In this document: piece after piece, positions 2,840 through 40,156 of the stretch
How the letters are laid out: every line of letters starts with the position of its first letter
Position numbering within the stretch: the stretch's first letter is position 1
Source: Vicinamibacterales bacterium
GTDB taxonomy: Bacteria > Acidobacteriota > Vicinamibacteria > Vicinamibacterales > 2-12-FULL-66-21
Assembly (NCBI GenBank): GCA_036258175.1
Contig: DATAEE010000391.1
Location: forward strand, 2,833 to 66,832
Length of the DNA: 64,000 bases
Direction: 5' to 3'
Translations under genes and position numbers: made by a program
The notes under the pieces: model-generated
Told to the model about the DNA's origin: nothing
Seen by the model: the letters and a program-made list of their open reading frames with translations, nothing else
The model's database searches: none

Positions 2840-5212
2840 ATGACTCGACCCCGATTGGCGATCTTTTCCGCGTGCGTGGTGTGCTTCGCCCTCGCGCAGA
2901 CGGGTGGCGCGCAGCGCATCACGAACGCCGTTCCTGACGTCGCGCGGCCGCTGCCGCTGTCGGCCGTCCGTCTGACGGGTGGGCCCCTCAAGCGCGCACA
3001 GGATCTCAACGGCGAGTACCTGCTCAAGCTTGAGCCCGATCGCATGCTCGCGTATTACAGGCAGCGCGCCGGCCTCGAGCCGAAGGCGGAGCCCTACGGC
3101 GGGTGGGATGGCGACGGCCGCAACCTCACCGGCCACATCGCGGGGCACTACCTCTCGGGCGTCAGCCTGATGTGGGCGGCGACGGGAGACGTGCGCTTCA
3201 AGGAGCGCGCCGATTACATCGTCAAGGAACTGAAAGAGGTCCAGGACAAACAGGCTGATGGTTTTGCCGGCGCGCTGGCAAAGGTCAAAGAGGCATTTGC
3301 GGAAGTGGGCAAGGGAAACATCCGTTCGGCCAGCTTCGATCTGAATGGCCTCTGGTCACCGTGGTACACGCTGCACAAGACCTACGCCGGCCTGCGGGAT
3401 GCGTATCGGTACACCGGCAACCGGACAGCGCTCGACGTCGAGATCGGATTCGCGACGTGGGCGGAAGCGATGCTCGCGCCGATGGACGATGCCCTGATTC
3501 AGAAGATGCTGAATACGGAGTTCGGCGGCATGAACGAGGTGATGGCGGACCTCTATGCCGACACCGGCGACAAGCGGTGGCTCACGCTCTCGTACAAGTT
3601 CGAGCACCGCGCGGTCCTCGATCCGCTCAAGCACCGCGAGGATCCGCTCGACGGCCTGCACGGGAACACACAGGTCCCGAAATTGATCGGATCGCTGTCC
3701 CGGTACGTGTACGCCGGGCAACCCGAGGACCGCACCGCGGCGGAGACCTTCTGGGATCGCGTCGCGCACCATCACACCTTCGCGAGCGGCGGGCATGGAA
3801 AAGATGAGTACTTCCGCGAGCCCGATCGTCTCGGCAACATCGTCGACGGGCGGACTGCAGAGACCTGCAACATCTACAACATGCTGAAGCTGACGCGTTC
3901 TCTTTTCGCGCTGAAGCCGGCCGTCGAGTACGCGGAGTTCCACGAGCGCGCGCTCTTCAACCACATCCTCGGATCGATTGATCCGGAGGACGGCGCCGTC
4001 TGCTACATGGTGCCGGTCGGGCGCGGCGTACGGCGCGAGTACCAGGACATGTTTCGTAGCTTCACGTGCTGCGTCGGCACGAGCATGGAGAGCCACGCGC
4101 TGCACGGACTGGGGATTTACTACGAGTCCGGCGATCGTCTCTGGGTCAACCTCTATGCGCCGTCGACCGCGGAGTGGAAGGCCGCGGGTGTCCGCGTCGC
4201 GATGGACACGACCTTTCCCGAAGGAGATTCGGCCACGTTGAAGGTGACCTCGGACGCGCCGAAGGCGTTCACGCTTGCGGTCCGCCGGCCCTCGTGGGCG
4301 AAGGATGGCTTCGCCGTCAGCGTGAACGGCAAGGCCGTCAAGGATCTTCCAGCCCCGGCGTCGTACGTCGAGCTCAATCGGACGTGGAAGAGCGGCGACA
4401 CTATCGCCGTGACGCTTCCGAAGGGCCTTGCGCTCGAACCGATGCCGGACAACGCGCGTCTTGCGGCCGTCATGTGGGGTCCGCTCGTGCTGGCCGGCGA
4501 TCTCGGCCCGGCGCCGCAGCGCCGCACCGACGTGCCGTCCACCGGCCCGCCGACCGACACACCGCCCAGACCGGACGTTCCCGCGCTCGTCACCGCAGGG
4601 AGACCGGTCACCGACTGGGTGAAGCCGGTCGCTGGCAAGCCGGGCACGTTCCGGAGCGACGGCGTCGGACGGAGCAAAGACGTCGAGCTCGTTCCTTTTT
4701 ATCGTCTGCATCGCCGGACCTACGCCGCCTACTGGGATCTCTTCACGCCGGCGGAGTACGAAAAGAGGATGGCGGAGCTCAGTGCCGAGCGCGAGCGGCA
4801 GCAGAAGCTGGAGGCGTCGAGCATCGCTTTCGTCCAGCCTGGCGGGCAGGAGGCCGAGAAGCCGTTCAATCAGCAGGGCGAGGAGACGTCGATCGTCCGC
4901 GCCGAGGGCCGGCCGGGCCGGCGTGCCGCGAAGTGGTTCTCGTACGATCTGACGGCGTCCGCGCAACCCAGGGCGCTCGTCGTCACCTACAACAGCGACA
5001 ACCGCAGGCCTCGGTCGTTCGACATCCTCGTCGACGGGCGGAAAGTGGGCGAGCAACGGATCGATCAGAGCAGCGTGTCGCGCTTCTTCGACGTCGAGTA
5101 CCCGTTGCCCGCAGATCTCGTGCAGGGCAAACAGAAAAAGCTCACCGTCCGCTTCGAGGCGACGGGCGGGAACGAGGTCGCGCCGGTGTTTGCCGTCCGT
5201 CTCATCCGGTAA
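2840..5212 (+). CDS. GH127 (DUF1680) beta-L-arabinofuranosidase-like glycoside hydrolase, secreted
   Basis: Signal peptide MTRPRLAIFSACVVCFALAQTGGA. Motifs GHIAGHYLSG, HGNTQVPKLIG, AETCNIYNMLKL and FTCCVGTSMESH match the HypBA1-type Cys-rich region. Confidence 0.85.
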   Translation: MTRPRLAIFSACVVCFALAQTGGAQRITNAVPDVARPLPLSAVRLTGGPLKRAQDLNGEYLLKLEPDRMLAYYRQRAGLEPKAEPYGGWDGDGRNLTGHIAGHYLSGVSLMWAATGDVRFKERADYIVKELKEVQDKQADGFAGALAKVKEAFAEVGKGNIRSASFDLNGLWSPWYTLHKTYAGLRDAYRYTGNRTALDVEIGFATWAEAMLAPMDDALIQKMLNTEFGGMNEVMADLYADTGDKRWLTLSYKFEHRAVLDPLKHREDPLDGLHGNTQVPKLIGSLSRYVYAGQPEDRTAAETFWDRVAHHHTFASGGHGKDEYFREPDRLGNIVDGRTAETCNIYNMLKLTRSLFALKPAVEYAEFHERALFNHILGSIDPEDGAVCYMVPVGRGVRREYQDMFRSFTCCVGTSMESHALHGLGIYYESGDRLWVNLYAPSTAEWKAAGVRVAMDTTFPEGDSATLKVTSDAPKAFTLAVRRPSWAKDGFAVSVNGKAVKDLPAPASYVELNRTWKSGDTIAVTLPKGLALEPMPDNARLAAVMWGPLVLAGDLGPAPQRRTDVPSTGPPTDTPPRPDVPALVTAGRPVTDWVKPVAGKPGTFRSDGVGRSKDVELVPFYRLHRRTYAAYWDLFTPAEYEKRMAELSAERERQQKLEASSIAFVQPGGQEAEKPFNQQGEETSIVRAEGRPGRRAAKWFSYDLTASAQPRALVVTYNSDNRRPRSFDILVDGRKVGEQRIDQSSVSRFFDVEYPLPADLVQGKQKKLTVRFEATGGNEVAPVFAVRLIR

Positions 5213-5414
5213 CGCGGATTTCACGGATCACGCGAGCCACGGATTTCACGGATGACGCGGTTTTTTCTTTGCCGCAGATTCACGCAGATAAACGCAGATA
5301 AGCAGGCAAGAAAGACAAGCGAAGTCCGGTTCTGCGTGCGTCCTGCGTGTATCTGCGGTTCTTGAATCCGTGTAATCCGTGGTTCGTGATCGGGATCTGC
5401 GAAATCCGCGGCTA
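5210..5414. repeat. Composite inverted-repeat element (CACGGAT-type outer arms plus GCAGAT-type inner arms) filling a convergent intergenic gap
   Basis: The left end is TAACGCGGATTTCACGGAT. The reverse complement of the right end is TAGCCGCGGATTTCGCAGAT. The inner arms CCGCAGATTCACGCAGATAAACGCAGA and TCTGCGTGCGTCCTGCGTGTATCTGCGG are imperfect complements. The two end triplets are the stop codons of the flanking genes. Confidence 0.7.
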
Positions 5415-7714
5415 GAGCGTGATCGAAACCGGCCGTCCCTGGAACACGACGGTCTTCGTCGTAGTCGCGCCGGCTATTCGGGCCTCGATGGTCCGCGGCA
5501 TCGGTGGCCGCATCCGTGATCCTGGCTCGAGCCGCAGCGTCAGGCGACGCGCGCGATCGTCCCACGCCATCGCGATCCCCATCCACTCGCCTTTGCGGTA
5601 ATCAAACGTCCGCCCGTCGTCCTCGTAGAGCGTGAACGTTCCGTCAGCACCCGGGTACACGCGCACCTCGAACGGCGCGTCGATCTTTTCTGCGGTGAAC
5701 TGCTTGACGGGGCCGAGCGGCAGGATCGCGCCGGCGCGGACATACAGCGGGATCGTGGCGAGGTCGACGGGGCGCTGAAGCTCGCGGCCGCCGTCGATGT
5801 CCTGGCCTGTCCAGAAGTCGTACCACGTTCCATGCGGCAGGTAGACCGACCGGGATCCCGCGCCTTTTTCGGTCACCGGCGCCACGAGGATGTCGCGGCC
5901 CCACAAGTACTCGTCGCCGCGCGCCGACGCGATGCGATCGTCCGGGTAGTGGAGCCAAAGCGACCGCATGATCGGCAAGCCAGAGCGGGTCGTCTCGCGG
6001 ACCACGCTGTACAGGTAGGGCAGCAGTCGATAGCGAAGCTCCAGGTACTTGCGGCAGATCGGCTCGACTGCGGCGTTTCGGAGCTCCGACGCATCCGGAT
6101 TTGCCGCGCCGCTGTAGTTCGGCGTGATGATCTCGTTCGGGCCCAGCTCGCCCGTGTTCCAGCCCCACGGCAGACGCAGATGCCAGCTGCGGCCGTGCGC
6201 GCGAAAGAGCGGGCAGAACGCGCCGAACTGGAACCAGCGCACGTGCAGCTCGCCGGTGTACTCCGCGGTCGGCACGAAGCCGCCGATGTCCGTTCCCCAG
6301 TACGGAATGCCGCTCAGCCCGGTGTTGATCGCAACCGACACGTGCGTGCGGAGCGTTTCCCACGTCGTGTAGACGTCGCCGGACCATAGAAACGCCGCGT
6401 AGCGCTGCATCCCGGCGTGTCCGTTGCGATGCAACGCGAACGGGCGCTCGTTCGCGCGCCAGAGTTGCGAGCCTTCCCAATACATGCGATGCCGCGCGAG
6501 CCGTGACGGCGCGTCCAGGCCGTCCCCTTGATCCGGCCACCAGCCGTCGGCGCCGATGTCGTAGAGCGGCTTGTGATACGGCCAGTAGCAGCTGACCTTC
6601 CGGTCGTCCGGCCATTTGCCGTCGGCCGTCCGCCCGCTCGGCAAACGGTCGGCGTCACTGCACGGATCCGCCACCGCGCCAGCCAGGCGCCGGCCCTCGA
6701 GGACGATGTGGAGGACGACCTTGAAGTTGAGATCGTGCAGCGTGTCGATCATCCGCTTCGGATCGGGGAAGTTGCTGGCGTTCCAGGTGAACTCGCCGTT
6801 GTTCGTGTTCCACCCGGACGGCGTGAAGCCCGTGCCGAGATAGATGAGCGCGTCGCACGGCAGCCGCTTCTCGCGGAACGTCCGCGCCACCTTCACGATT
6901 TCGTCCGGGCCGGCGAGCGTGCGGTGCGACTGAAGATAGCCGAGCGACCAGAGCGGCGGCATTTCCGGATGACCAGTCAGTCGCGCATACTCGGCCATCA
7001 CCTGGACCGGGTCACGTGCTCCAACGATAAAGAGATCGAGCGGCAGGCCGTCCGTCGCGGGGTCGAAGCGGGCTTCCGGGCCCGTGAAATCGAACGACCC
7101 CTGCGGGTGATGGATGAACATCGCCCAGCCTGCGGTGCCGACGAGCCACTGCACGGGCGCGCGGCCTCCGTGCGTGCGCAGCCGGTAACCGCCCGACCGT
7201 TTTTCATCGCATCGGTCGAGCCGCGGCGATCGAATTGCGGCCCGCCCTCGCCAAGACCAAGAAGCGGCCCGTCACCAATGGGGAAGCGCAGCGTGCCTTT
7301 CCCGGGATCGATCTGAAGTTGCTGGACCATCCGGCCGTCTGCAGCGTCCACGCGGACGGTCAGCGGGTCGAAGGAAATAGATACGTTGAACGCGCCGCAG
7401 CGAATGCGGTGACGGTCGCCTGGGGGCATCACTTTCGCCACGGGCGCCGACGATGATGTCGCTGGCTGCGCGAGCGCGCCGTCGAGCGGGACGGACAGGG
7501 TGCGCCCACGGCCGCGCGGGCTCACCGTCACCCGGACGCTGTGCTGTCCGGAGGGCGCGACGGCCACTTCGATCCCCGGGCCTTCAGCCGTGGGGACTCT
7601 GACGAGAGCGGCCGCGCCCGCCGCGCCGAAGGTCTTCAGGGCGTCGCGTCTCGAGATAAAGGGGACAGCTACCTTTTTCCGCACGCCGTAAAAAGGTGAC
7701 TGTCCCCTTTTCAT
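5412..7714 (-). pseudogene. GH31 alpha-glucosidase/alpha-xylosidase-like gene, interrupted by a frameshift near 7190-7205
   Basis: The C-terminal 580 aa (ORF 5412..7154) carry GH31 motifs WWPDQGDG, WSGDVYTTWETL, GIPYWGTDIGGF and FCPLFRAHG. The N-terminal ~170 aa lie in another frame, as the tail of the 999-aa shadow ORF. They read MKRG..SRRDALKTFGAAGAAALV (Tat-like) through LGLGEGGPQFDRRGSTDAMKNG. The frames overlap between 7160 and 7275, next to a T5 run at 7200-7204. Confidence 0.75.
7658..7710. repeat. 53-nt double-stem palindromic element, copy A
   Basis: AAAGGGGACAG-CT-ACCTTTTT, an 11-nt loop, then AAAAAGGT-GA-CTGTCCCCTTT. The outer stem is 11 bp and the inner stem 8 bp. The second copy is at 25690-25742. 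Confidence 0.8.
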
Positions 7715-7723
7715 TGGCCGCCT

Positions 7724-10204
7724 ATGGTAATACCTATCTCCATGTTGCGAAGCGCGCGATTCTGCCTTCCAGTGGTTGCGGCGCTGACGGTTCTTGGTGC
7801 GGCGCAAACGCCACCCGGCTCGGCACGCAGCCTGAAGCGTGACTATCCAGTCCAGCCCGTACCCTTCACGGCGGTGCACCTGACCGACGTGTTCTGGGCG
7901 CCGAAGATCGAGACCAATCGCACCGTCACGATTCCGTTCGCGTTCGAGCAGTGCGAGCGAACGGGCCGCGTGGATTTGTTCGAGCGGGCCGCGACGGTGC
8001 TGCGCGGTCAGCCGCTCGAGAACCGCCAGCCGCCCGGGTATCCCTTCGACGACACTGACGTCTACAAGGTCATCGAGGGCGCATCGTATACGCTCAGCGT
8101 CCACCCTGATCCGAAGCTCGACGCCTACGTCGATTCGCTCATCGCGAAGATCGCCGCGGCGCAGGAGCCGGATGGCTACATTTACACCACGCGGACCATC
8201 GATCCGCAGAACCCGCACAAGTGGGCGGGGAAGGAACGATGGGAGCTCGAGCGCGACGACAGCCACGAGCTGTACAACCTCGGGCACTTGTACGAAGCGG
8301 CCGTGGCGCATTACCTCGCGACCGGCAAGCGCACGCTGCTCGACGTCGCCATCAAGAGCGCCAACCTGCTCGTGAGCGTGTTCGGTCCGGGCAAACGGTC
8401 GATCTGGCCCGGCCACCAGATCACTGAGATGGCGCTTGCGCGGCTGTATCGCGTGACCGGCGACGAGCGCTATCTGACGCTCGCGAAGTTCCTGCTCGAC
8501 GAGCGCGGGCCGAATCCCGGCGAGAAAGTGAACCCGCGCGGGTTGGCCTACAACCAGGCGCAGCAGCGCGTGGTCGAGCAGACCGAGCCCGTCGGCCACG
8601 CCGTCCGCGCAACGTACATGTACTCCGGAATGGCGGATGTCGCGGCGTTGACCGGCGACGCCGCCTACATTAAGGCGATCGACACGATCTGGGAAAACAC
8701 CGTCGGCAGGAAGCTGTACATCACCGGCGGGATCGGCGCGACGGGCGCCGGCGAAGCGTTCGGCCACCATTACGAGTTGCCGAACATGACGGCGTACAAC
8801 GAGACGTGCGCGTCGATAGGGATGGACTACTGGAACCACCGCCTGTTCCTGCTCCATGGCGACGCGAAGTACATCGACGTCATGGAGCGGACGCTGTTCA
8901 ACGGCTTGATCTCGGGCGTGTCGCTGGACGGCAAGACGTTCTTCTATCCGAACCCGCTCGAGTCGAACGGCCAGCACGAGCGCAGCCCGTGGTTCGGCGT
9001 CGCTTGCTGTCCATCGAACATCACACGGTTCCTGGCGTCGGTTCCCGGCTACGTGTACGCAAAGCAAGGTGAGACGATCTACGTCAACCTCTTCGCGGAA
9101 AGCAGGGCTGAGATCGACGTGGGCGGCGGACGCGTGCTGAAGATCGTCCAGGAAACGCGATATCCGTGGGACGGCCTGGTCCACCTGAAGATAGATCCGG
9201 GAGCTGCGCGGTTCTTCGAGATCAAAGTACGCATCCCGGGCTGGGCGAGCGACAGGCCCGTGCCGAGCGATCTCTACCGTTTCTATACAGTGACGCGTGA
9301 TTCCTTGGTCCGGAGGCGGATGCTGATGGTCAACGGTGAGCATGTCTCGTTGAACCAGGCAAAGGGCTATGCAAGCCTCGCGCGAGTCTGGCGTGCCGGA
9401 GACACGATCGATCTGAACCTTCCGATGCCAGTCCAACGCGTTTTCGCGCACGACAGCGTTGAAGCCGATCGCGGACGCGTCGCGCTGCAGCGCGGACCGT
9501 TGATGTTCGCCGCCGAGTGGCCCGACAATCCGAACGGCCGTGTACGCAATCTGGTTCTGACGGACTCGACGCCGTTGACCTCTGAGTTCCGGCCGAACCT
9601 GCTGAATGGCGTGCAGGTGATCACAGGACGCGCCACTGCGCTCGCGTTCGACGAGAAGGGCGCCGTCACGAAGACGGAGCAGGACTTCACAGCCATTCCG
9701 TATTACGCGTGGGCGAACCGCGGACGCGGGCAGATGATCGTCTGGCTGCCGAACTCGGAGGCGAACGCGCGACCCGCGCCGTACCCGACGCTCGCGACGG
9801 CCGCAACGGTGACGACCTCCGGCCGGAAGAACCCGCGGATGATCAATGACGGCGAGGAACCTCCAGCGTCCGCGGATTCGTCGTCGTATTTCGACTGGTG
9901 GCCGACGCGTGGGACGACCGAGTGGGCCGAGATGACGTTCGCGAAGACAGCGACGGTCTCCGGCGTCGAGCTGTATTGGTTCGACGACACCGGCCACGGC
10001 CAGGTGCGCGTGCCCGCCTCCTGGCGCCTCTTATATAAGGATGGCGCCGAGTGGAAGCCCGTCGCCCCGAGCGGTCCTTACGGTGTCGCGAAGGACGCCT
10101 GGAACAAAGTGGCGTTCGCGCCGGTCACGACCACCGCCCTGCGCCTCGAAGTGACGATGCAGCCGCAGTGGTCCGCGGGGATCCAGGAGTGGAAAGTTCG
10201 CTGA
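7724..10204 (+). CDS. GH127 (DUF1680) beta-L-arabinofuranosidase-like hydrolase with a C-terminal discoidin/F5-8 type C-like module
   Basis: The likely true start is ATG 7742, giving signal peptide MLRSARFCLPVVAALTVLGA. Motifs are SHELYNLGHLYEAAVAHY, GHAVRATYMYSGM, YNETCASIGM and FGVACCPSNITRF. The C-terminus EWAEMTFAKTATVSGVELYWFDD looks like a carbohydrate-binding jelly-roll. Confidence 0.85.
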   Translation: MVIPISMLRSARFCLPVVAALTVLGAAQTPPGSARSLKRDYPVQPVPFTAVHLTDVFWAPKIETNRTVTIPFAFEQCERTGRVDLFERAATVLRGQPLENRQPPGYPFDDTDVYKVIEGASYTLSVHPDPKLDAYVDSLIAKIAAAQEPDGYIYTTRTIDPQNPHKWAGKERWELERDDSHELYNLGHLYEAAVAHYLATGKRTLLDVAIKSANLLVSVFGPGKRSIWPGHQITEMALARLYRVTGDERYLTLAKFLLDERGPNPGEKVNPRGLAYNQAQQRVVEQTEPVGHAVRATYMYSGMADVAALTGDAAYIKAIDTIWENTVGRKLYITGGIGATGAGEAFGHHYELPNMTAYNETCASIGMDYWNHRLFLLHGDAKYIDVMERTLFNGLISGVSLDGKTFFYPNPLESNGQHERSPWFGVACCPSNITRFLASVPGYVYAKQGETIYVNLFAESRAEIDVGGGRVLKIVQETRYPWDGLVHLKIDPGAARFFEIKVRIPGWASDRPVPSDLYRFYTVTRDSLVRRRMLMVNGEHVSLNQAKGYASLARVWRAGDTIDLNLPMPVQRVFAHDSVEADRGRVALQRGPLMFAAEWPDNPNGRVRNLVLTDSTPLTSEFRPNLLNGVQVITGRATALAFDEKGAVTKTEQDFTAIPYYAWANRGRGQMIVWLPNSEANARPAPYPTLATAATVTTSGRKNPRMINDGEEPPASADSSSYFDWWPTRGTTEWAEMTFAKTATVSGVELYWFDDTGHGQVRVPASWRLLYKDGAEWKPVAPSGPYGVAKDAWNKVAFAPVTTTALRLEVTMQPQWSAGIQEWKVR

Positions 10205-10330
10205 GCCACGGATGTCGCGGATCACGAAGCCACGGATTACACGGATTATTTCGCTACGGATTTCACGGATTCTTAAGGAACCGCAGATTCACGCAGATAC
10301 TATCTGCGTGAATCTGCGTCCATCTGCGGC
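10202..10330. repeat. Left arm of a composite inverted-repeat element (CACGGAT units plus a perfect GCAGAT hairpin)
   Basis: TGAGCCACGGATGTCGCGGATCAC begins at the GH127 stop codon. An 18-bp perfect stem, CGCAGATTCACGCAGATA/TATCTGCGTGAATCTGCG, lies at 10282-10318. Confidence 0.7.
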
Positions 10331-22656: not shown

Positions 22657-23841
22657 TTGACATCCGCCACTGGCAGTTACGCGGAGATACTGGCCGAACG
22701 CATCGAGGCCGAGCGCGTGAGGCTGGCCCAGGCCTGGCTCGACCGGCTCAAGACCGTGCTCTCGGTCGAGCCGAACGACGTCTTTCCAACCGACAGGCTA
22801 CTGGATCACATCCCTCTGCTGCTCGGGGAGATCGCCCGCTACCTGCGAGCGCCGAAGACCGAAGAGATCGCCGCGAACGCTGCCGTCATCGACAAGGCGC
22901 GCGAGCTGGGGCAGCTACGCCACGAGCAGAAAGCCTCGGTACACCAGATCCTGCGGGAGTACGAGCTGCTCGCAGAGATCCTGGAGAGTTTCGTCGCGTC
23001 GGAGACGAAGCGCCTCGATCTGGAGCCGGCGTCCTCCGTGTGCCTGGACGCGATGCGCAGACTGATGCGGTCGGTGCGCGCGCTGATGCGCACGACCGTC
23101 GACACGTTCGTCGGCGAATACACCGCAACCATCGAGGCGCAGACCGAGCAGCTCCGGAGCTATAACCGGATGGCCAGCCATGAGTTGCGCTCGCCTGTCG
23201 GCACGATCCTGGTCGCGGCGAGCCTGATCATCCGGGAGGACGTCCAACACGATCCCCAGCGGTGGGAGCGCATCGCAAGCACGATTCGGCGGAACGCGGA
23301 GCGTTTGAGCGTGCTGTTGAGCACGCTGCAGCGCGTCGCGCACCTCGACGAGGCGCTCGACGGCCCGAGCTCGCAGGTCGTCGAAGTGGCCTCGCTCGCG
23401 GAGGAGGTTGCGCGCCAGCTTCGGGAAATGGCGCAGGCCCGTCAAGTGGCCGTACGAGTCGATCCGGGGCTGCCTGTTCTACTGATCGATCCGGCGCGGC
23501 TCGAACTTGCCCTGCTGAACCTCATCTCCAACGGAATCAAGTACAGCGACCCGGCGAAGCCGGATCGCTTCGTCGAGATTCGCTTCGACGGCCAGTCGGA
23601 TTCGACCTGCACGATTTGCGTGCGCGACAACGGCCTGGGTATCCCAGACGACGCGAAGCCAGCGGTCTTCAAGCGGTTCTTCCGGGCACACGCCGAGCTG
23701 GACGACCGGCTCGGCATAGACGGCAGCGGTCTCGGCCTCGCCATAGTCGCCGAATGCGTGCAGGCGCTCGGCGGTGCGATCACCTGCGAGTCGCGCGCCG
23801 GCGAGGGCACGACCTTCTACCTCGAGCTCCCCGTCAAGTAA
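22657..23841 (+). CDS. Cytoplasmic sensor histidine kinase (orphan; no adjacent response regulator)
   Basis: H-box MASHELRSPVG. N-box LISNGIKY. DNGLGIP and GSGLGLAIV are the G-boxes. There are no TM segments. TTG start. Confidence 0.85.
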   Translation: MTSATGSYAEILAERIEAERVRLAQAWLDRLKTVLSVEPNDVFPTDRLLDHIPLLLGEIARYLRAPKTEEIAANAAVIDKARELGQLRHEQKASVHQILREYELLAEILESFVASETKRLDLEPASSVCLDAMRRLMRSVRALMRTTVDTFVGEYTATIEAQTEQLRSYNRMASHELRSPVGTILVAASLIIREDVQHDPQRWERIASTIRRNAERLSVLLSTLQRVAHLDEALDGPSSQVVEVASLAEEVARQLREMAQARQVAVRVDPGLPVLLIDPARLELALLNLISNGIKYSDPAKPDRFVEIRFDGQSDSTCTICVRDNGLGIPDDAKPAVFKRFFRAHAELDDRLGIDGSGLGLAIVAECVQALGGAITCESRAGEGTTFYLELPVK

Positions 23842-23847
23842 GTCTTC

Positions 23848-23929
23848 CATCGTCAATCGTCAATCGTCCCCAATCATCAATCGACAATCGCCGAACAATC
23901 GACAATCAACAATCCACAGTCCACAATGG
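23848..23929. repeat. Tandem array of ~12 degenerate heptamers (CAATCGN)
   Basis: CCATCGT CAATCGT CAATCGT CCCC AATCAT CAATCGA CAATCGC CGAA CAATCGA CAATCAA CAATCCA CAGTCCA CAATGG. It lies between the kinase stop (23841) and the lhr start (23933). Confidence 0.85.
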
Positions 23930-23932
23930 AGT

Positions 23933-26900
23933 GTGGCTCTCTCGCAATTTCATCCTGTCGTGGCGCGCTGGTTTGCCGAGACGCTCGGCGAACCGACGAC
24001 GGCTCAGGTCCGCGGGTGGGCGTCGATCCGCGAAGGCCGTCATGCGCTCGTGGCGGCCCCGACCGGATCGGGCAAGACACTCGCGGCATTCCTCGGCGCG
24101 CTCGACGATCTCCTTCAAGAAGGATTACGAGGCCCGCTGCCGGATGAGGTGCGAGTCGTCTACGTCTCGCCTCTGAAGGCGCTCAGCGCGGACATCGTCA
24201 AAAACCTCGGCGAGCCGCGGCGCGGAATCCGGGAGCTGGCGGAGGAGGCGGACCTCGACGCGCCGCGCATTACGGCGGCGGTGCGGACCGGCGACACGAC
24301 TCAATCCGAGCGCGCCGCGATGCTGCGTACGCCGCCGCACATTCTAGTCACGACTCCCGAGTCGCTTTACCTCCTGCTCACTGCGGAACGCAGCCGCGAG
24401 ATGCTCCGCACCGCGCGCATGGTCATCGTGGACGAGATCCACGCCGTCATCGGGACCAGACGTGGCGCGCACCTCGCGCTGTCGCTGGAGCGGCTCGAGG
24501 CATTGACCGAGGGGACGCTCCAACGCGTCGGTCTTTCGGCTACTCAGAATCCAATCGAAGAAGTTGCCCGGTACCTCATTGGCACCGATCGCACCGAGTG
24601 CGCCATCGTCGATGAAGGGCACCGCAGGGAAATGGATCTTGCGCTGGAGATCCCGCGGTCGCCGATCGAAGCGGTGATGTCCCACGAGGTGTGGGAGGAG
24701 TACTACGATCGCCTGACCGAGCTGATCGCGGCGCACCGGACGACGCTGGTGTTCGTGAACACGCGGCGTCTGGCGGAGCGGGTGGCCCGGCACCTCAGCG
24801 ACCGCTTAGGCGACACCGTCGTCACGGCGCATCACGGCAGCCTGTCGAAGGAGCGGCGGCTCGATGCGGAATCACGACTCAAAGGCGGTCACCTGAAAGC
24901 GCTCGTCGCGACCGCGTCCCTTGAACTTGGCATCGACATCGGCTCGGTCGATCTCGTCTGCCAGATCGGCTCGCCGCATCACATCGCGACCTTCCTGCAG
25001 CGCGTCGGGCGGTCCGGCCACAGCATCCATGGGCTGCCGAAGGGGCGGCTGTTTGCCGTCTCGCGCGACGACCTCGTCGAGTGCGCCGCGCTGGTGCGGT
25101 CGGTCAGGCGCGGCGAGCTCGACCGGATCGTGTCGCACGACGCGCCGCTCGACGTGCTGGCGCAGCAGGTGGTCGCTGAGTCGGCGTCCCGTGAGTATTC
25201 GGAGGACGAGTTGTTCGCGCTCGTGCGGCGGGCGTGGCCTTACCGCGCGCTCGAGCGGCGCGACTTCGATGCCGTGGTCAAGATGACGGCCGAGGGGTTC
25301 GCCACGCGGAGGGGCCGCCGCAGCGCCCTCGTCCATCGAGATGAAGTGAATGCGAAGGTGAGGGGACGTCGCGGCGCCCGCTCGCTCGCGATCACCTCGG
25401 GTGGCGCCATCCCGGAAGTGGCGGACTACCGCGTTGTGCTGGTCCCGGAGGACACGTTCATCGGCACGCTGAACGAGGACTTCGCGATCGAGAGCTCCGC
25501 CGGAGACATCTTTCAACTCGGCAACGCGTCGTGGCAGATCCTGCAGGTCGGCCCGGGCATCGTGCGCGTAGCGGACGCGAAAGGAGCACCGCCGACAATA
25601 CCGTTCTGGTTCGGCGAGGCGCCGGCGCGCAGCGACGAGCTGTCACGCTCGGTCAGCAATCTGCGCTCGGAAGTCGAGAGCGCGCTGGAAAAGGGGACAG
25701 CCCCCTTTTTACAAGAAACGGAAAAAGGTGACTGTCCTCTTTCTCCCGCCGCCGCGGAGCAGATCGTCGCGTACCTGGCCGACGGGCGGCGGGCGCTGGG
25801 CGTGCTGCCGACACAGGACACGCTCGTGCTCGAGCGCTTCTTCGACGAATCGGGCGGGATGCAGCTCGTGCTTCATGCGCCGTTCGGCAGCCGCGTGAAC
25901 CGCGCGTGGGGTCTCGCACTCCGCAAGCGCTTCTGCCGGCAGTTCAACTTCGAGCTGCAGGCGGCGGCCAACGAGGACGCCATCCTACTCTCGCTCGGGC
26001 CGCAGCACTCGTTCCCGCTGGCGGACGTGTTCCGGTACCTGCACCCTGCGACGGCGCGGGACGTGCTGGTGCAAGCATTCCTCGACGCGCCCGTGTTCCA
26101 GACGCGCTGGCGCTGGAACACCACGGTGTCGCTCGCGGTCCCGCGCAACCGCCACGGCAAGAAAGTCCCGCCGCAGCTCCAGCGCATGCTGGCGGACGAC
26201 TTGATGGCGGCGGTGTTTCCAGATGCGGCCGCGTGCCTCGAGAACATTCCGGGCGACCGGGAAATCCCGGACCATCCTCTGGTCAGTCAGACCGTTCGTG
26301 ACTGCCTCGAGGAGGCGATGGACTTCGAGACGCTGTCGGCAGTGCTCGAGCGGATCCATCGTGGCGAGTTGCGTCTCGTGTCGCGCGACACGCCTGAACC
26401 ATCACCGCTCGCGCACGAAATCCTGAACGCTCGCCCGTACGCGTTCCTGGACGATGCCCCGCTCGAAGAGCGCCGGACCCAGGCCGTCTATACCCGACGC
26501 GCGACGGAGCCGGCGTCCGGAGGAGACCTCGGCGCGCTCGACGTGGCGGCGATCGAACGGGTGCGCGACGACGCACGGCCAGAGCCGCGCGACGCCGACG
26601 AGCTGCACGACGCGCTGCTGACTGCAGGATTCCTGACGATGGGGGAGGGGGCCGCCTTCCAGCCCGAGCTGTTCGAGCCCCTGATTGCCGGTGGTCGGAT
26701 CACTCGCGTAGTGGCGCAGCCCTTCAGGGCTGCGGAAGCGGACTGGCTCTGGACAACAGCCGAACGGCTTCCCGAGCTGCTCGCGGTTCATCCGGGCGCG
26801 TCCCTCGATCCGCCGGTCATGCCCCCGGCATCGCGCACCGCACGAACCTGGAGGCGCGAGGAAGCGATCGTCGAGCTGCTTCGCGGCAGACTCACGGTTA

Positions 26901-28249
26901 CCGGACCGACGACGGCCGGCGAACTGGCGCAGTCCCTCGACGTCACCGAAGCAGAGGCGATGACGGCCCTCGAGGCGCTCGAAGCGGAAGGCGTCGTCCT
27001 GCGCGGTTTTTTCACGCCCGAATCCGCGCTGGAATGGTGCGATCGGCGGCTGCTCGCGCGAATCCATCGCTACACGCTCAATCGCCTTCGCGCGGAGATC
27101 GAGCCGGTGAGTCCGGCCGACTTCATGCGTTTCCTGTTCGTGTGGCAGCACGTGGACAAGACGACGCGTCTGAGCGGCCTCGACGGTCTGCGCGCGGTTG
27201 TCGGAGAGCTCGACGGGTTCGAACTGCCAGCGCGCGCGTGGGAGCGGTCGGTGCTTCCTGCGCGGCTCGATCGCTACGAGCCGTCGATGCTCGACCTGCT
27301 GTGCCTCACCGGTCATGTGGGATGGGCGCGTCTCTCCGCGGGATCAGTACCTGTGGCGGGCGTCAGCCCGATCGCGCTGTTTCTTCGAGAGCACGCTGAC
27401 GGTTGGCTGACGCTGCGCGCCGAAGGTGGTACGAGGCTTCCGCCTAGTCCGCCGGACGAGGAGCCATCGCTGACCCCGCTCACGCGCACCGTGCTGGGCG
27501 TACTCGTGGCGCGCGGCGCATCGTTCCTCAAAGAGATCGCAACGGCTTGCGCGATCGACGAGGTGACGGCTCGAAGCGCCGTCGGCGAGCTGGTCTCGGC
27601 GGGGCTCATCACGTCCGATGGCTTCGCCGGCCTGCGCGCGATCCTGCGCGCCCGGCGGCCGGATGCGGCCCGCGAACGCGGCGCCGATTCTTCAGGGCGC
27701 TGGTCGCTTCTTCGGCCACGGATCACAGCGGATGACGGACCACAGATCACCGCGGATCGTGAAGCCGCCGTGGAGGTCCAGGCCTGGGCGCTTCTGCGCC
27801 GGTACGGCGTCGTGTTCCGCAGGCTGCTCGCGCGGGAGACGAACGCGGCGCCGTGGCGCGAACTGGCCCGCATGTATCGCCGCCTCGAAGCCCGTGGCGA
27901 GATCCGCGGCGGCCGGTTCGTGAGCGGCATGTCCGGCGAGCAGTTCGCGCTCGGCGAGGCGGTCGAGCGGCTGCGCGAGGTTCGCCGTACGCCGGTCGAC
28001 GACACGCTCATTTCGATCAGCGCCGCCGATCCGCTCAACCTCGCGGGCATCGTGACGCCCGGCGACCGGGTGCCGGCGCGCGGCGCGAGCCGGATGGTCT
28101 ACCGCCACGGCGTACCGATCGCGGTGATGGAAGGGGACTACGTGCGGCCGCTCGTCGAGTACGATTCTTCGCTCGCCGGCGAGGTCGCAACCGCGCTCGC
28201 CGGTCGGAGAGTGCCCGCGGTCCTGAGCGGTTTCGTCGGACGGCACTAA
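23933..28249 (+). CDS. lhr: Lhr-family large ATP-dependent DEAD/DEAH-box helicase
   Basis: The probable GTG start at 23933 gives (M)ALSQFHPVVARWFAE. Motif I is APTGSGKTLAAFL. VDEIH, helicase C HHGSLSKERR, then NRAWGLALRKRFC and a long C-terminal domain follow. The track ORF start at 23774 runs through the heptamer array. Confidence 0.9.
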   Translation: MALSQFHPVVARWFAETLGEPTTAQVRGWASIREGRHALVAAPTGSGKTLAAFLGALDDLLQEGLRGPLPDEVRVVYVSPLKALSADIVKNLGEPRRGIRELAEEADLDAPRITAAVRTGDTTQSERAAMLRTPPHILVTTPESLYLLLTAERSREMLRTARMVIVDEIHAVIGTRRGAHLALSLERLEALTEGTLQRVGLSATQNPIEEVARYLIGTDRTECAIVDEGHRREMDLALEIPRSPIEAVMSHEVWEEYYDRLTELIAAHRTTLVFVNTRRLAERVARHLSDRLGDTVVTAHHGSLSKERRLDAESRLKGGHLKALVATASLELGIDIGSVDLVCQIGSPHHIATFLQRVGRSGHSIHGLPKGRLFAVSRDDLVECAALVRSVRRGELDRIVSHDAPLDVLAQQVVAESASREYSEDELFALVRRAWPYRALERRDFDAVVKMTAEGFATRRGRRSALVHRDEVNAKVRGRRGARSLAITSGGAIPEVADYRVVLVPEDTFIGTLNEDFAIESSAGDIFQLGNASWQILQVGPGIVRVADAKGAPPTIPFWFGEAPARSDELSRSVSNLRSEVESALEKGTAPFLQETEKGDCPLSPAAAEQIVAYLADGRRALGVLPTQDTLVLERFFDESGGMQLVLHAPFGSRVNRAWGLALRKRFCRQFNFELQAAANEDAILLSLGPQHSFPLADVFRYLHPATARDVLVQAFLDAPVFQTRWRWNTTVSLAVPRNRHGKKVPPQLQRMLADDLMAAVFPDAAACLENIPGDREIPDHPLVSQTVRDCLEEAMDFETLSAVLERIHRGELRLVSRDTPEPSPLAHEILNARPYAFLDDAPLEERRTQAVYTRRATEPASGGDLGALDVAAIERVRDDARPEPRDADELHDALLTAGFLTMGEGAAFQPELFEPLIAGGRITRVVAQPFRAAEADWLWTTAERLPELLAVHPGASLDPPVMPPASRTARTWRREEAIVELLRGRLTVTGPTTAGELAQSLDVTEAEAMTALEALEAEGVVLRGFFTPESALEWCDRRLLARIHRYTLNRLRAEIEPVSPADFMRFLFVWQHVDKTTRLSGLDGLRAVVGELDGFELPARAWERSVLPARLDRYEPSMLDLLCLTGHVGWARLSAGSVPVAGVSPIALFLREHADGWLTLRAEGGTRLPPSPPDEEPSLTPLTRTVLGVLVARGASFLKEIATACAIDEVTARSAVGELVSAGLITSDGFAGLRAILRARRPDAARERGADSSGRWSLLRPRITADDGPQITADREAAVEVQAWALLRRYGVVFRRLLARETNAAPWRELARMYRRLEARGEIRGGRFVSGMSGEQFALGEAVERLREVRRTPVDDTLISISAADPLNLAGIVTPGDRVPARGASRMVYRHGVPIAVMEGDYVRPLVEYDSSLAGEVATALAGRRVPAVLSGFVGRH
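25690..25742. repeat. 53-nt double-stem palindromic element, copy B (inside the lhr coding sequence)
   Basis: AAAGGGGACAG-CC-CCCTTTTT, an 11-nt loop, then AAAAAGGT-GA-CTGTCCTCTTT. The arms match copy A at 7658-7710, while the loop sequence is unrelated. Confidence 0.8.
26715..26734. repeat. REP-type hairpin CGCAGCCC-TTCA-GGGCTGCG inside the lhr coding sequence
   Basis: The core is the same as the intergenic hairpins at 21519, 37647 and 49343. It is translated as VAQPFRAAEA. Confidence 0.6.
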
Positions 28250-28278
28250 GCACAGATCGTCGATGCCTCGTGCCTTGT

Positions 28279-28398
28279 GCCGGGTGCCTGGTGCGAACGG
28301 GGTGCCGGGTGCCTGGTGGGTGCCTGGTGCTTGGTGAGTGCGTGGTGCACCCGGCACCCACCTGGCACCCGGCACCCCGCTCGCACCAGGCACCAGGC
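28279..28398. repeat. Long near-perfect hairpin built from GGTGCC/GGCACC units (51-nt arms, 18-nt loop)
   Basis: Left arm 28279-28329 against the reverse complement of 28348-28398 gives 47/51 identical by hand alignment. It begins 30 nt after the lhr stop and could act as a terminator or REP. Confidence 0.85.
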
Positions 28399-28547
28399 AT
28401 GTGGCACCAGGCACCCAGACGCCAAACAGCGATCGAATCGAATTCTCAAATCTTCGTCATCTCGAGATGTGATGGTGAGAAGATCATCGACATCATGCGG
28501 AGATTCTATGAATCGATCGCGAGCGCGCTCGCTATCATGCGTTCGCG

Positions 28548-39804: not shown

Positions 39805-40156
39805 CCACGGATTACCGCGGATCTCAAAACAGCCACGGATCGGATTTTTCTAACCACAGATGAACGCAGATTCACGCAGATCGGAATCTGCGTGGCGCAC
39901 GCTCGGAGCGGCCGGCGGAGCCGGCCGCCTGGCTGGGACTGCGTAGCCACGGCCGTGAGACAAAGGCTCGTGTTGAACGTCTCACGGTCGTGGCTACGCA
40001 GTCCCAGCCTTCGCGCCTGCGGCGCGACCGAGCGGCGCCCTGGGTTGATCTGCGGTTCTTTAAATCCGTGAAATCCGTGAAATCCGTGGTTTCGTGATCC
40101 GAGATCAGTGGTGATCCGTGGCTTCGTGATCCGAGATCCGTGGTGATCCGTGGCTA
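39802..40156. mobile_element. MITE-like composite palindromic element (355 bp) with 24-bp terminal inverted repeats and a central 31-bp-stem hairpin
   Basis: Left end TAGCCACGGATTACCGCGGATCTC against the reverse complement of the right end TAGCCACGGATCACCACGGATCTC gives 22/24. The central arms at 39931-39961 and 39979-40009 are 30/31 complementary. There is an inner CACGCAGAT/ATCTGCGTG hairpin and ATCCGTG tandem units. It has no coding capacity. Confidence 0.55.

Follow-up and report, generated by a model that had tools for sequence, protein, structure and literature searches.

A 53-nt hairpin at the start of a GH31 gene as a probable doublet of TIRYT-type terminal inverted repeats

TIRtrons are IS-like units whose gene product is a tyrosine transposase (Y1/HUH) of TIRYT type (subclass 2.1), an enzyme group related to the RAYTs. 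The names 'TIRtron', for a RAYT-like gene with long flanking inverted repeats, and 'TIRYT', for its enzyme, were introduced by Di Nocera et al. (2013, PMC3733652). They described the motif GGGGWSAS as shared by the TIRs, which form moderately abundant families occurring as single, dimer and grouped units, and distinguished one TIRYT group as specific to Acidobacteria. That TIRYT mobilises TIR doublets is put forward there as a proposal only. The same paper (PMC3733652) reports intragenic, in-frame dimers of REPs that encode 20-30 residues and are frequent in DNA-repair genes, linkers and N-termini, and it recalls in this connection the RPEs of Rickettsia. Quentin et al. (2018, PMC6006769) assigned TIRYT to TnpA_Y1 subclass 2.1, found in 14.9% of strains and carrying a C-terminal HTH domain, and also defined the GGGGWSAS motif. 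Within the literature searched, the term TIRYT occurred in these two papers only.

Here we describe a 53-nt hairpin between two divergent glycosidase genes that is very probably made of both end repeats (TIRs, terminal inverted repeats) of a TIRtron, joined head to head as a doublet and presumably moved in trans by a TIRYT. This class of element has already been described, and the hairpin adds to the known TIR doublets of TIRYT type. The DNA analysed was a single 64-kb stretch, referred to below as the window.

The hairpin at the GH31 start and its empty-site counterpart

The features surrounding the hairpin are as follows.

7658-7710: TIR doublet, copy 1, with left arm 7658-7678, loop 7679-7689 and right arm 7690-7710
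7712-7714, minus strand: ATG of GH31, equivalent to the ATG of the empty-site orthologue
7682-7684, minus strand: in-frame GTG in the hairpin loop, the sole alternative start codon upstream of the Tat motif
7634-7654, minus strand: SRRDALK codons (twin-arginine motif), directly after the element
6998-7714, minus strand: GH31 N-terminal ORF fragment, the true frame being lost after about 7195
5412-7195, minus strand: rest of GH31, with TIM barrel and C-terminal domains, frame-shifted by a 1-nt deletion
7724-10204, plus strand: divergent gene for a GH127 beta-L-arabinofuranosidase, start ATG 7724 or alternatively ATG 7742

The sequence of 7658-7710 is AAAGGGGACAG-CT-ACCTTTTT-CCGCACGCCGT-AAAAAGGT-GA-CTGTCCCCTTT. 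Its 53 nt fold just as the preliminary description had claimed: a 2x2 mismatch separates an outer stem of 11 bp from an inner stem of 8 bp, which closes a loop of 11 nt. As RNA the element has a minimum free energy (MFE) of -32.4 kcal/mol on the plus strand and -33.4 kcal/mol on the minus strand (z = -6.0 and -6.1, respectively), and none of 200 shuffled sequences was as stable. The corresponding values for single-stranded DNA are -18.4 and -21.0 kcal/mol (z = -7.7 and -7.4). The GGGGWSAS motif lies near the outer end of the arm, and GGGGACAG is present in both arms of this copy. Relatives have a fourth A/T and a G/C; with these included, the unit may span 7656-7712. In one arm of copy 1, a 2-nt change has given rise to the letters GTAG. 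A covariance-model scan of 7500-7900 against Rfam returned chance-level matches only (best 18 bits, E = 0.72), and BLAST of the window copy against plasmids gave no match. The motif string also turned up in a Thiomargarita paper, where it is a PCR primer and irrelevant here.

On the minus strand the GH31 gene opens with the ATG at 7714-7712, followed by a single spacer base (7711) and then by the element. Copy 1 is free of stop codons in minus-strand frames 1 and 2 and in plus-strand frame 2. Its proposed translation as a new N-terminus holds at the level of the sequence: the element is in frame, specifies residues 2-19 (KRGQSPFYGVRKKVAVPF) and leads directly into ISRRDALK. The Pfam TAT_signal model aligns to GH31 residues 20-38 with E = 3.8e-4, at 20.7 bits and thus just below its 22.7-bit cut-off. 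The only in-frame ATG, GTG or TTG codons upstream of the twin-arginine motif are ATG 7714 and the loop codon GTG 7684, so that the element must be at least partly translated if the protein is still made. Beyond 7714 the minus-strand frame has no stop for a long distance in the upstream direction, but this stretch is simply the antisense of GH127 in a genome with 66% G+C.

The closest GH31 relative (P0245) is encoded on a syntenic contig, L122, on which GH127 and GH31 likewise lie back to back. There the site is empty and reads ...CCATAAGCCGCGTC ATG ACT GAT CGA ATC TCG AGA, whereas the filled site in the window reads ...CCATAGGCGGCCA ATG A[53 nt]ATC TCG AGA. The GH31 N-termini are accordingly MTDR-ISRRDALK in L122 and M-KRGQSPFYGVRKKVAVPF-ISRRDALK in the window. 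Relative to L122, 8 nt have given way to 53 nt, which makes the window sequence longer by 45 nt (15 codons). The difference is therefore not a clean insertion of 53 nt, and with 8 nt missing and a nucleotide identity to L122 of ~80% the exact insertion event is not reconstructible. An element-like N-terminal peptide is absent from all 120 GH31 homologues, and the 45 whose N-termini were inspected begin with M-x(2-5)-[IL][ST]RR or close variants. The comparison of orthologous N-termini that the preliminary description called for thus finds the element peptide not to be conserved and, together with the empty site in L122, identifies the palindrome as inserted rather than as part of an ancestral N-terminus.

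As assembled, the GH31 gene is not intact, since a 1-nt deletion at 7194/7195 breaks its frame (AACGGTC-GGGCGG, compared with AACGGTCAGGGCGG in L122). L122 has frameshifts of its own at different positions, which makes an assembly error a real possibility. On the other side of the element, the preliminary description gave a distance of 13 nt to the GH127 start. This is correct for ATG 7724, but the gene call on L122 starts GH127 at the ATG equivalent to window position 7742, and the distance may instead be 31 nt.

Further copies in the window and in other genomes

A second doublet is present in the same window, within a helicase gene.

25690-25742: TIR doublet, copy 2, more decayed than copy 1 (covariance-model score 57.4 bits)
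23774-28249, plus strand: Lhr-type helicase ORF of 1491 aa, which hosts copy 2

The preliminary description had proposed a search for other copies, and both its local and its wider form were productive, the former yielding copy 2 and the latter the doublets in other genomes considered below. For the pattern AAAGGGGACAG-N25-40-CTGTCCCYTTT the number of chance matches expected in the 64-kb window is 0. When the window was searched with a covariance model for decayed extra copies, only the two copies were recovered, copy 1 scoring 58.9 bits. The window thus holds two head-to-head dimers within 64 kb, a repetition of the kind seen in TIRYT-associated TIR families. Copy 2 has GGGGACAG in one arm and GAGGACAG in the other, and direct repeats indicative of a target-site duplication are absent at both window copies.

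Copy 2 falls within the linker that joins the WH_Lhr domain to the DEAD_assoc domain and is translated in frame as EKGTAPFLQETEKGDCPLS. The frame used differs from that of copy 1, indicating that conservation acts on the DNA and not on the protein. The peptide is absent from Lhr homologues, whose linker is hypervariable and in several relatives contains other odd inserts. A conserved protein motif was considered as an explanation for the element and rejected, because homologues lack the peptide and the two copies are read in different frames.

Outside this contig, we scanned a collection containing one genome per species with the two outer arms as query and obtained doublets at 120 or more loci, where by our own estimate chance should produce no more than a few matches. 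The scan required the outer stem, which is consequently common to all matches by construction, and the informative part of the result is the shared inner architecture and the existence of multi-copy genomes. The common architecture comprises AAAGGGGACAG, five subfamily-specific bases, a run of 4-5 T residues, the loop, and the mirror image of these parts, the whole measuring 49-57 nt. Several genomes have multiple copies, and the matches listed represent at least 10 phyla, including Bacillota, Pseudomonadota, Acidobacteriota, Planctomycetota, Actinomycetota, Myxococcota, Elusimicrobiota, Nitrospirota, Omnitrophota and Bacteroidota, among others. Doublets near-identical to those in the window are found in two other Acidobacteriota MAGs (L015 and L056), in each case exactly between the stop codons of convergent genes. 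The loop of the L056 doublet, CAAGAAACG, is that of window copy 2. In-frame copies also occur elsewhere, one within a HypF_C_2 domain (L011) and one within a giant ORF (L118). A special inverted duplication of the target was considered for the palindromes flanking doublets, but many of these are nested or grouped TIR units, or reflect insertions inside other palindromic repeats. A scan of viral contigs with the exact Acidobacteria arm produced one chance match, on an AT-rich contig without a TIRYT.

The distribution of the copies bears on the suggestion of the preliminary description that the hairpin gates both glycosidase genes. In its most explicit form this reading treats the element as an exapted regulatory hairpin that controls GH31 translation by sequestering the bases right behind the AUG, attenuates transcripts entering GH127, or does both. 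The element is very stable (-33 kcal/mol) and its MFE fold begins at the G of the AUG, the divergent intergenic space amounts to only about 10-30 nt, and on the plus strand TTTTCATT follows the hairpin just upstream of the GH127 start, all of which would suit such a role. However, the same element occurs in a helicase gene, in a HypF domain and between convergent stop codons, and this range of unrelated contexts indicates a dispersed mobile repeat and not a dedicated regulator. The orthologous locus, moreover, works without the element, the GH31 gene carries a frameshift, and scanning copy 1 for promoters and terminators gave no site resembling either consensus. We regard an exapted regulatory role of this hairpin as unlikely, and gating of the two genes, which is unsupported, is not needed to explain the element. 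Structure in initiation regions hinders translation initiation, and a strong hairpin from position +5 of the ORF would be expected to lower translation from the GH31 ATG, though as a side effect.

A broader version of the same idea would have the doublet co-opted to set the GH31 translation rate, possibly with a shift of the start to the loop GTG, and to insulate or attenuate between the glycosidase genes. The 49-57-nt GGGGWSAS doublets as a whole might be a pan-bacterial REPIN-like population that repeatedly remodels signal peptides and linkers. We consider this unlikely.

Transposase genes bounded by ends of the same type

The identification of the hairpin as a TIR doublet is based, at the level of the family, on genes whose ends match the arms of doublets. 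BLAST with a Pseudomonas-type query led to a Pseudomonas aeruginosa record containing three 230-aa 'transposase' genes. Each has ATAAAGGGGACAGATTTATTTTCCC... (AAAGGGGACAGATTTATTTTC...) on its left and the inverse directly after the stop codon, and the 50-nt doublets present in other Pseudomonas genomes have arms identical to these gene ends. The same record contains gene-less derivatives of roughly 170-190 bp. The encoded protein is a Y1_Tnp/IS200-like HUH enzyme (Pfam PF01797, E = 7.6e-14), and the family to which it belongs numbers 37,858 protein clusters at 50% identity (E <= 1e-3).

The association of these genes with inverted repeats is general. With an 11-sequence alignment we retrieved 80 metagenomic loci encoding relatives, 69 of which had enough flanking DNA for analysis. 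An inverted repeat of at least 14 nt spans the gene at 56 of these 69 TIRYT loci, and the GGGGWSAS motif (GGGG[AT][CG]A[CG]) lies within the repeat at 41 of the 56. Controls with shifted flanks gave an inverted repeat in 5 of 30 cases and the motif in 0 of 30. At L153 the TIRYT gene is bounded by a left TIR of AAATGGGG(A/T)CAGACCACGTTTA type and a right TIR of AAAAAGGGGACAGACCACGTTTTC type, and this locus also contains four 48-nt doublets composed of those same left-type and right-type arms. At L126 the gene ends are the arms of doublets on the same contig (GGGGTCAG-type element), and at L197 doublets lie beside the TIRYT gene. Against a covariance model whose training set comprised the hairpin loci alone, the doublets of L153 and L197 reach 40-51 bits. 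Searches by tblastn and profile HMM detected no TIRYT gene in the 64-kb window or in the 120 hairpin loci, and the gene-flanking TIRs nearest to the window arms, those of L197 and L198, are about 3 edits away.

This evidence also bears on whether the hairpin might instead be a classical REP or REPIN, that is a GTAG-tagged doublet mobilised by a RAYT, or an RPE of the Rickettsia type with its CGTC tag. The overall logic of such elements is the same, with hairpin doublets, a relative of the Y1 transposase and in-frame intragenic copies (PMC3733652). The best NCBIfam model for the P. aeruginosa protein, furthermore, is REP_Tyr_transpos (REP-associated tyrosine transposase). Its score of 75.6 bits, however, falls below the RAYT cut-off of 80. 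The canonical arm, GAAAAGGGGACAGTCACCTTTTT in L015 and in the window, lacks GTAG at its end and does not form a clean palindrome, and the CGTC tag is absent from either end of the window copies. The arms bear instead GGGGWSAS, the defining motif of TIRYT-type TIRs. It is thus very unlikely that the hairpin is a REP, REPIN or RPE.

Inverted terminal repeats with flanking A- and T-runs are also what would be expected of a MITE derived from a DDE-type insertion sequence, or of a bidirectional intrinsic terminator that arose in place, and the position of the L015 and L056 copies between convergent stop codons is terminator-like. Across 125 doublets, however, target-site duplications of at least 3 nt were present at chance level only. 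This lack of duplication fits HUH/Y1 chemistry and speaks against a DDE-type MITE, as does the match of the arms to the ends of Y1 and not of DDE transposase genes. Both window copies lie within ORFs, and a simple terminator scan did not call copy 1 and called only a partial inner hairpin of copy 2. We judge an origin as a MITE or a terminator to be extremely improbable.

Proposed origin and comparison with known systems

In our preferred reading, the TIRtron-derived doublet would be a minimal gene-less derivative in which the left and right ends are retained and the interior is deleted, and so an analogue of a REPIN. A TIRYT whose gene lies at another place in the genome would mobilise it in trans, probably as a folded single-stranded DNA hairpin by analogy with IS200/IS605 and RAYT/REPIN, and its transposition would leave no target-site duplication. 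The cognate TIRYT gene would be bounded by GAAAAGGGGACAG[TC]CACCTTTTT. Copy 1 would have landed just after the GH31 ATG in a stop-free frame, replacing about 8 nt and lengthening the n-region of the Tat signal peptide, and copy 2 would have landed in the flexible Lhr linker. Intragenic copies would be expected to survive only in stop-free frames at permissive positions, which here would be the n-region of the Tat signal and a linker between domains. Neither copy has the look of an evolved regulator; both seem to be insertions that the host genes tolerate, and if the hairpin affects GH31 translation or GH127 transcription at all, it would do so incidentally.

For annotation, doublets of 49-57 nt explain odd N-terminal extensions and linker inserts, as well as peptides such as KRGQSPF, KGTxxF or KGDxPL, and they mark possible start-codon miscalls. 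New here are a clean pair of empty and filled sites for a TIRYT-type doublet and the occurrence of this class in frame in coding sequence, as is the case for REPs and RPEs. The scans also reveal the TIRYT system to be widespread and little studied, with about 38,000 clusters and doublets in at least 10 phyla. These modest additions extend a described class and leave current understanding unchanged.

The window elements resemble the IS200/IS605 family in the lack of a target-site duplication and, on the reading given above, would share with it a Y1 HUH transposase and the use of single-stranded DNA hairpins as substrates. They differ in that the ends of IS200/IS605 elements are differing subterminal hairpins and not inverted repeats of each other. 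To our knowledge there is no GGGGWSAS motif in IS200/IS605.

REPINs (Bertels & Rainey 2011, PMC3116915) are closer in architecture, since they too consist of two short inverted units with a short spacer that form a long hairpin. They are also non-autonomous, depend on a single Y1/HUH enzyme and leave no target-site duplication. However, REP units are headed by GTAG and are self-palindromic, RAYTs belong to another subclass, and doublets of the window type are shorter at 49-57 nt (comparison with PMC3116915). The RPEs and intragenic REP dimers, as reviewed in PMC3733652, are likewise palindromes inserted in frame in functional genes, where they add about 15-30 residues, and they are frequent in linkers, N-termini and DNA-repair genes, of which Lhr is the example here. 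According to PMC3733652, RPEs differ in being CGTC-tagged, mostly longer, confined to Rickettsia and without a known transposase.

The TIR families of TIRtrons and their TIRYTs are the closest match. They share with the window elements the GGGGWSAS motif near the outer end of the arm, at family level, arms that are the inverted repeats flanking Y1 genes, occurrence as single, dimer and grouped units, and presence of the class in Acidobacteria. The difference lies in the setting, as both window copies are read in frame as part of genes, and one immediately follows a start codon, whereas the intragenic copies in the available portion of PMC3733652 are GTAG and CGTC REPs, with none of TIR type there. 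Overall, the window case is a neat but unexceptional instance of something already known.

Reading frames around the two doublets

The first doublet lies just inside the minus-strand GH31 gene, beside the divergent GH127 gene, and both genes can be compared with L122, a syntenic relative in which the site is empty. The two divergent genes are separated by a short spacer (GGTATTACCATA / ATGGTAATACCTATC) that is kept in both genomes (window 7715-7745, L122 5960-6000). Also kept is an ATG that precedes the called GH127 start by 18 nt, and translation of GH127 could begin at either 7724 or 7742. Relative to L122, the window lacks one base of GH31 at 7194-7195, and this deletion breaks the gene into two ORFs (6998-7714 and 5412-7154). 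Since L122 has other frameshifts of its own, the break may stem from an error in long-read assembly and need not mark a pseudogene.

The second doublet is hosted by the Lhr helicase ORF, where a hypervariable linker joins the WH_Lhr and DEAD_assoc domains (window 25650-25760; homologues P0004, P0006, P0008, P0011 and P0043). Several Lhr relatives carry other odd inserts in this linker (PVASGFSRT..., SESASENVLVAQAFRP... and VRLEPDT...), which look like other palindromic repeats translated in frame. If that is what they are, the linker would be an insertion hotspot.

Other repeats in the window

The window contains further repeats:

5200-5410 and 10205-10330, both orientations: arrays of the short motifs CACGGAT(T/G) and CGCAGAT(A/T), just past the stop codons of GH31 and GH127
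10282-10318: perfect palindrome of 18+18 nt within these arrays
28264-28413: dyad of ~150 nt made of GGTGCC(T/G)GGTGC-like units, directly after the Lhr stop codon, with 67-nt arms that are 88% complementary
39931-40009: long palindrome with 31-nt arms, 97% complementary, and a 17-nt spacer

The short-motif arrays are a repeat family distinct from the terminal inverted repeat (TIR) doublets. The palindrome at 39931-40009 may be a GTAG-type REP doublet, because each of its arms contains GCGTAGCC.

Doublets and TIRYT genes at other loci

In 47 of 126 doublets the palindrome reaches 4-50 nt beyond the doublet through locus-specific sequence (L016, L063, L104 and L057 among them). Three sources account for this extension in the inspected examples: partial TIR units, arranged in tandem or nested (GTGCAAAGGGGAC...), one doublet nested within another (L104), or a doublet inserted into the middle of a REP hairpin of the GTAGGAGCG type (L057). 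A subfamily of 55-nt doublets with GGGGACAGGCTACTTTTT arms (L007, L011, L028, L067, L070, L084, L090, L099, L101 and L103) has a conserved, asymmetric loop, AYAGGGGTAATTA. That MAGs labelled Eubacteriales and Aminicenantes share this subfamily, loop included, suggests that the whole doublet has spread horizontally.

Across the 80 metagenomic loci encoding the TIRYT transposase (L123-L202), GGGGTCAG-type ends are apparently commoner than GGGGACAG-type ends, and at several (L133, L190) tandem motif arrays adjoin the TIRYT gene. Downstream of a DUF637 protein in Pseudomonas aeruginosa (L121, NZ_CP116719.1), TIRtrons, the units encoding TIRYT, and their ~170-190-bp derivatives are interleaved with small cassettes of a toxin/immunity-like kind (deaminase, EndoU, endonuclease and glutamine deamidase), and they seem to punctuate an orphan-toxin array.
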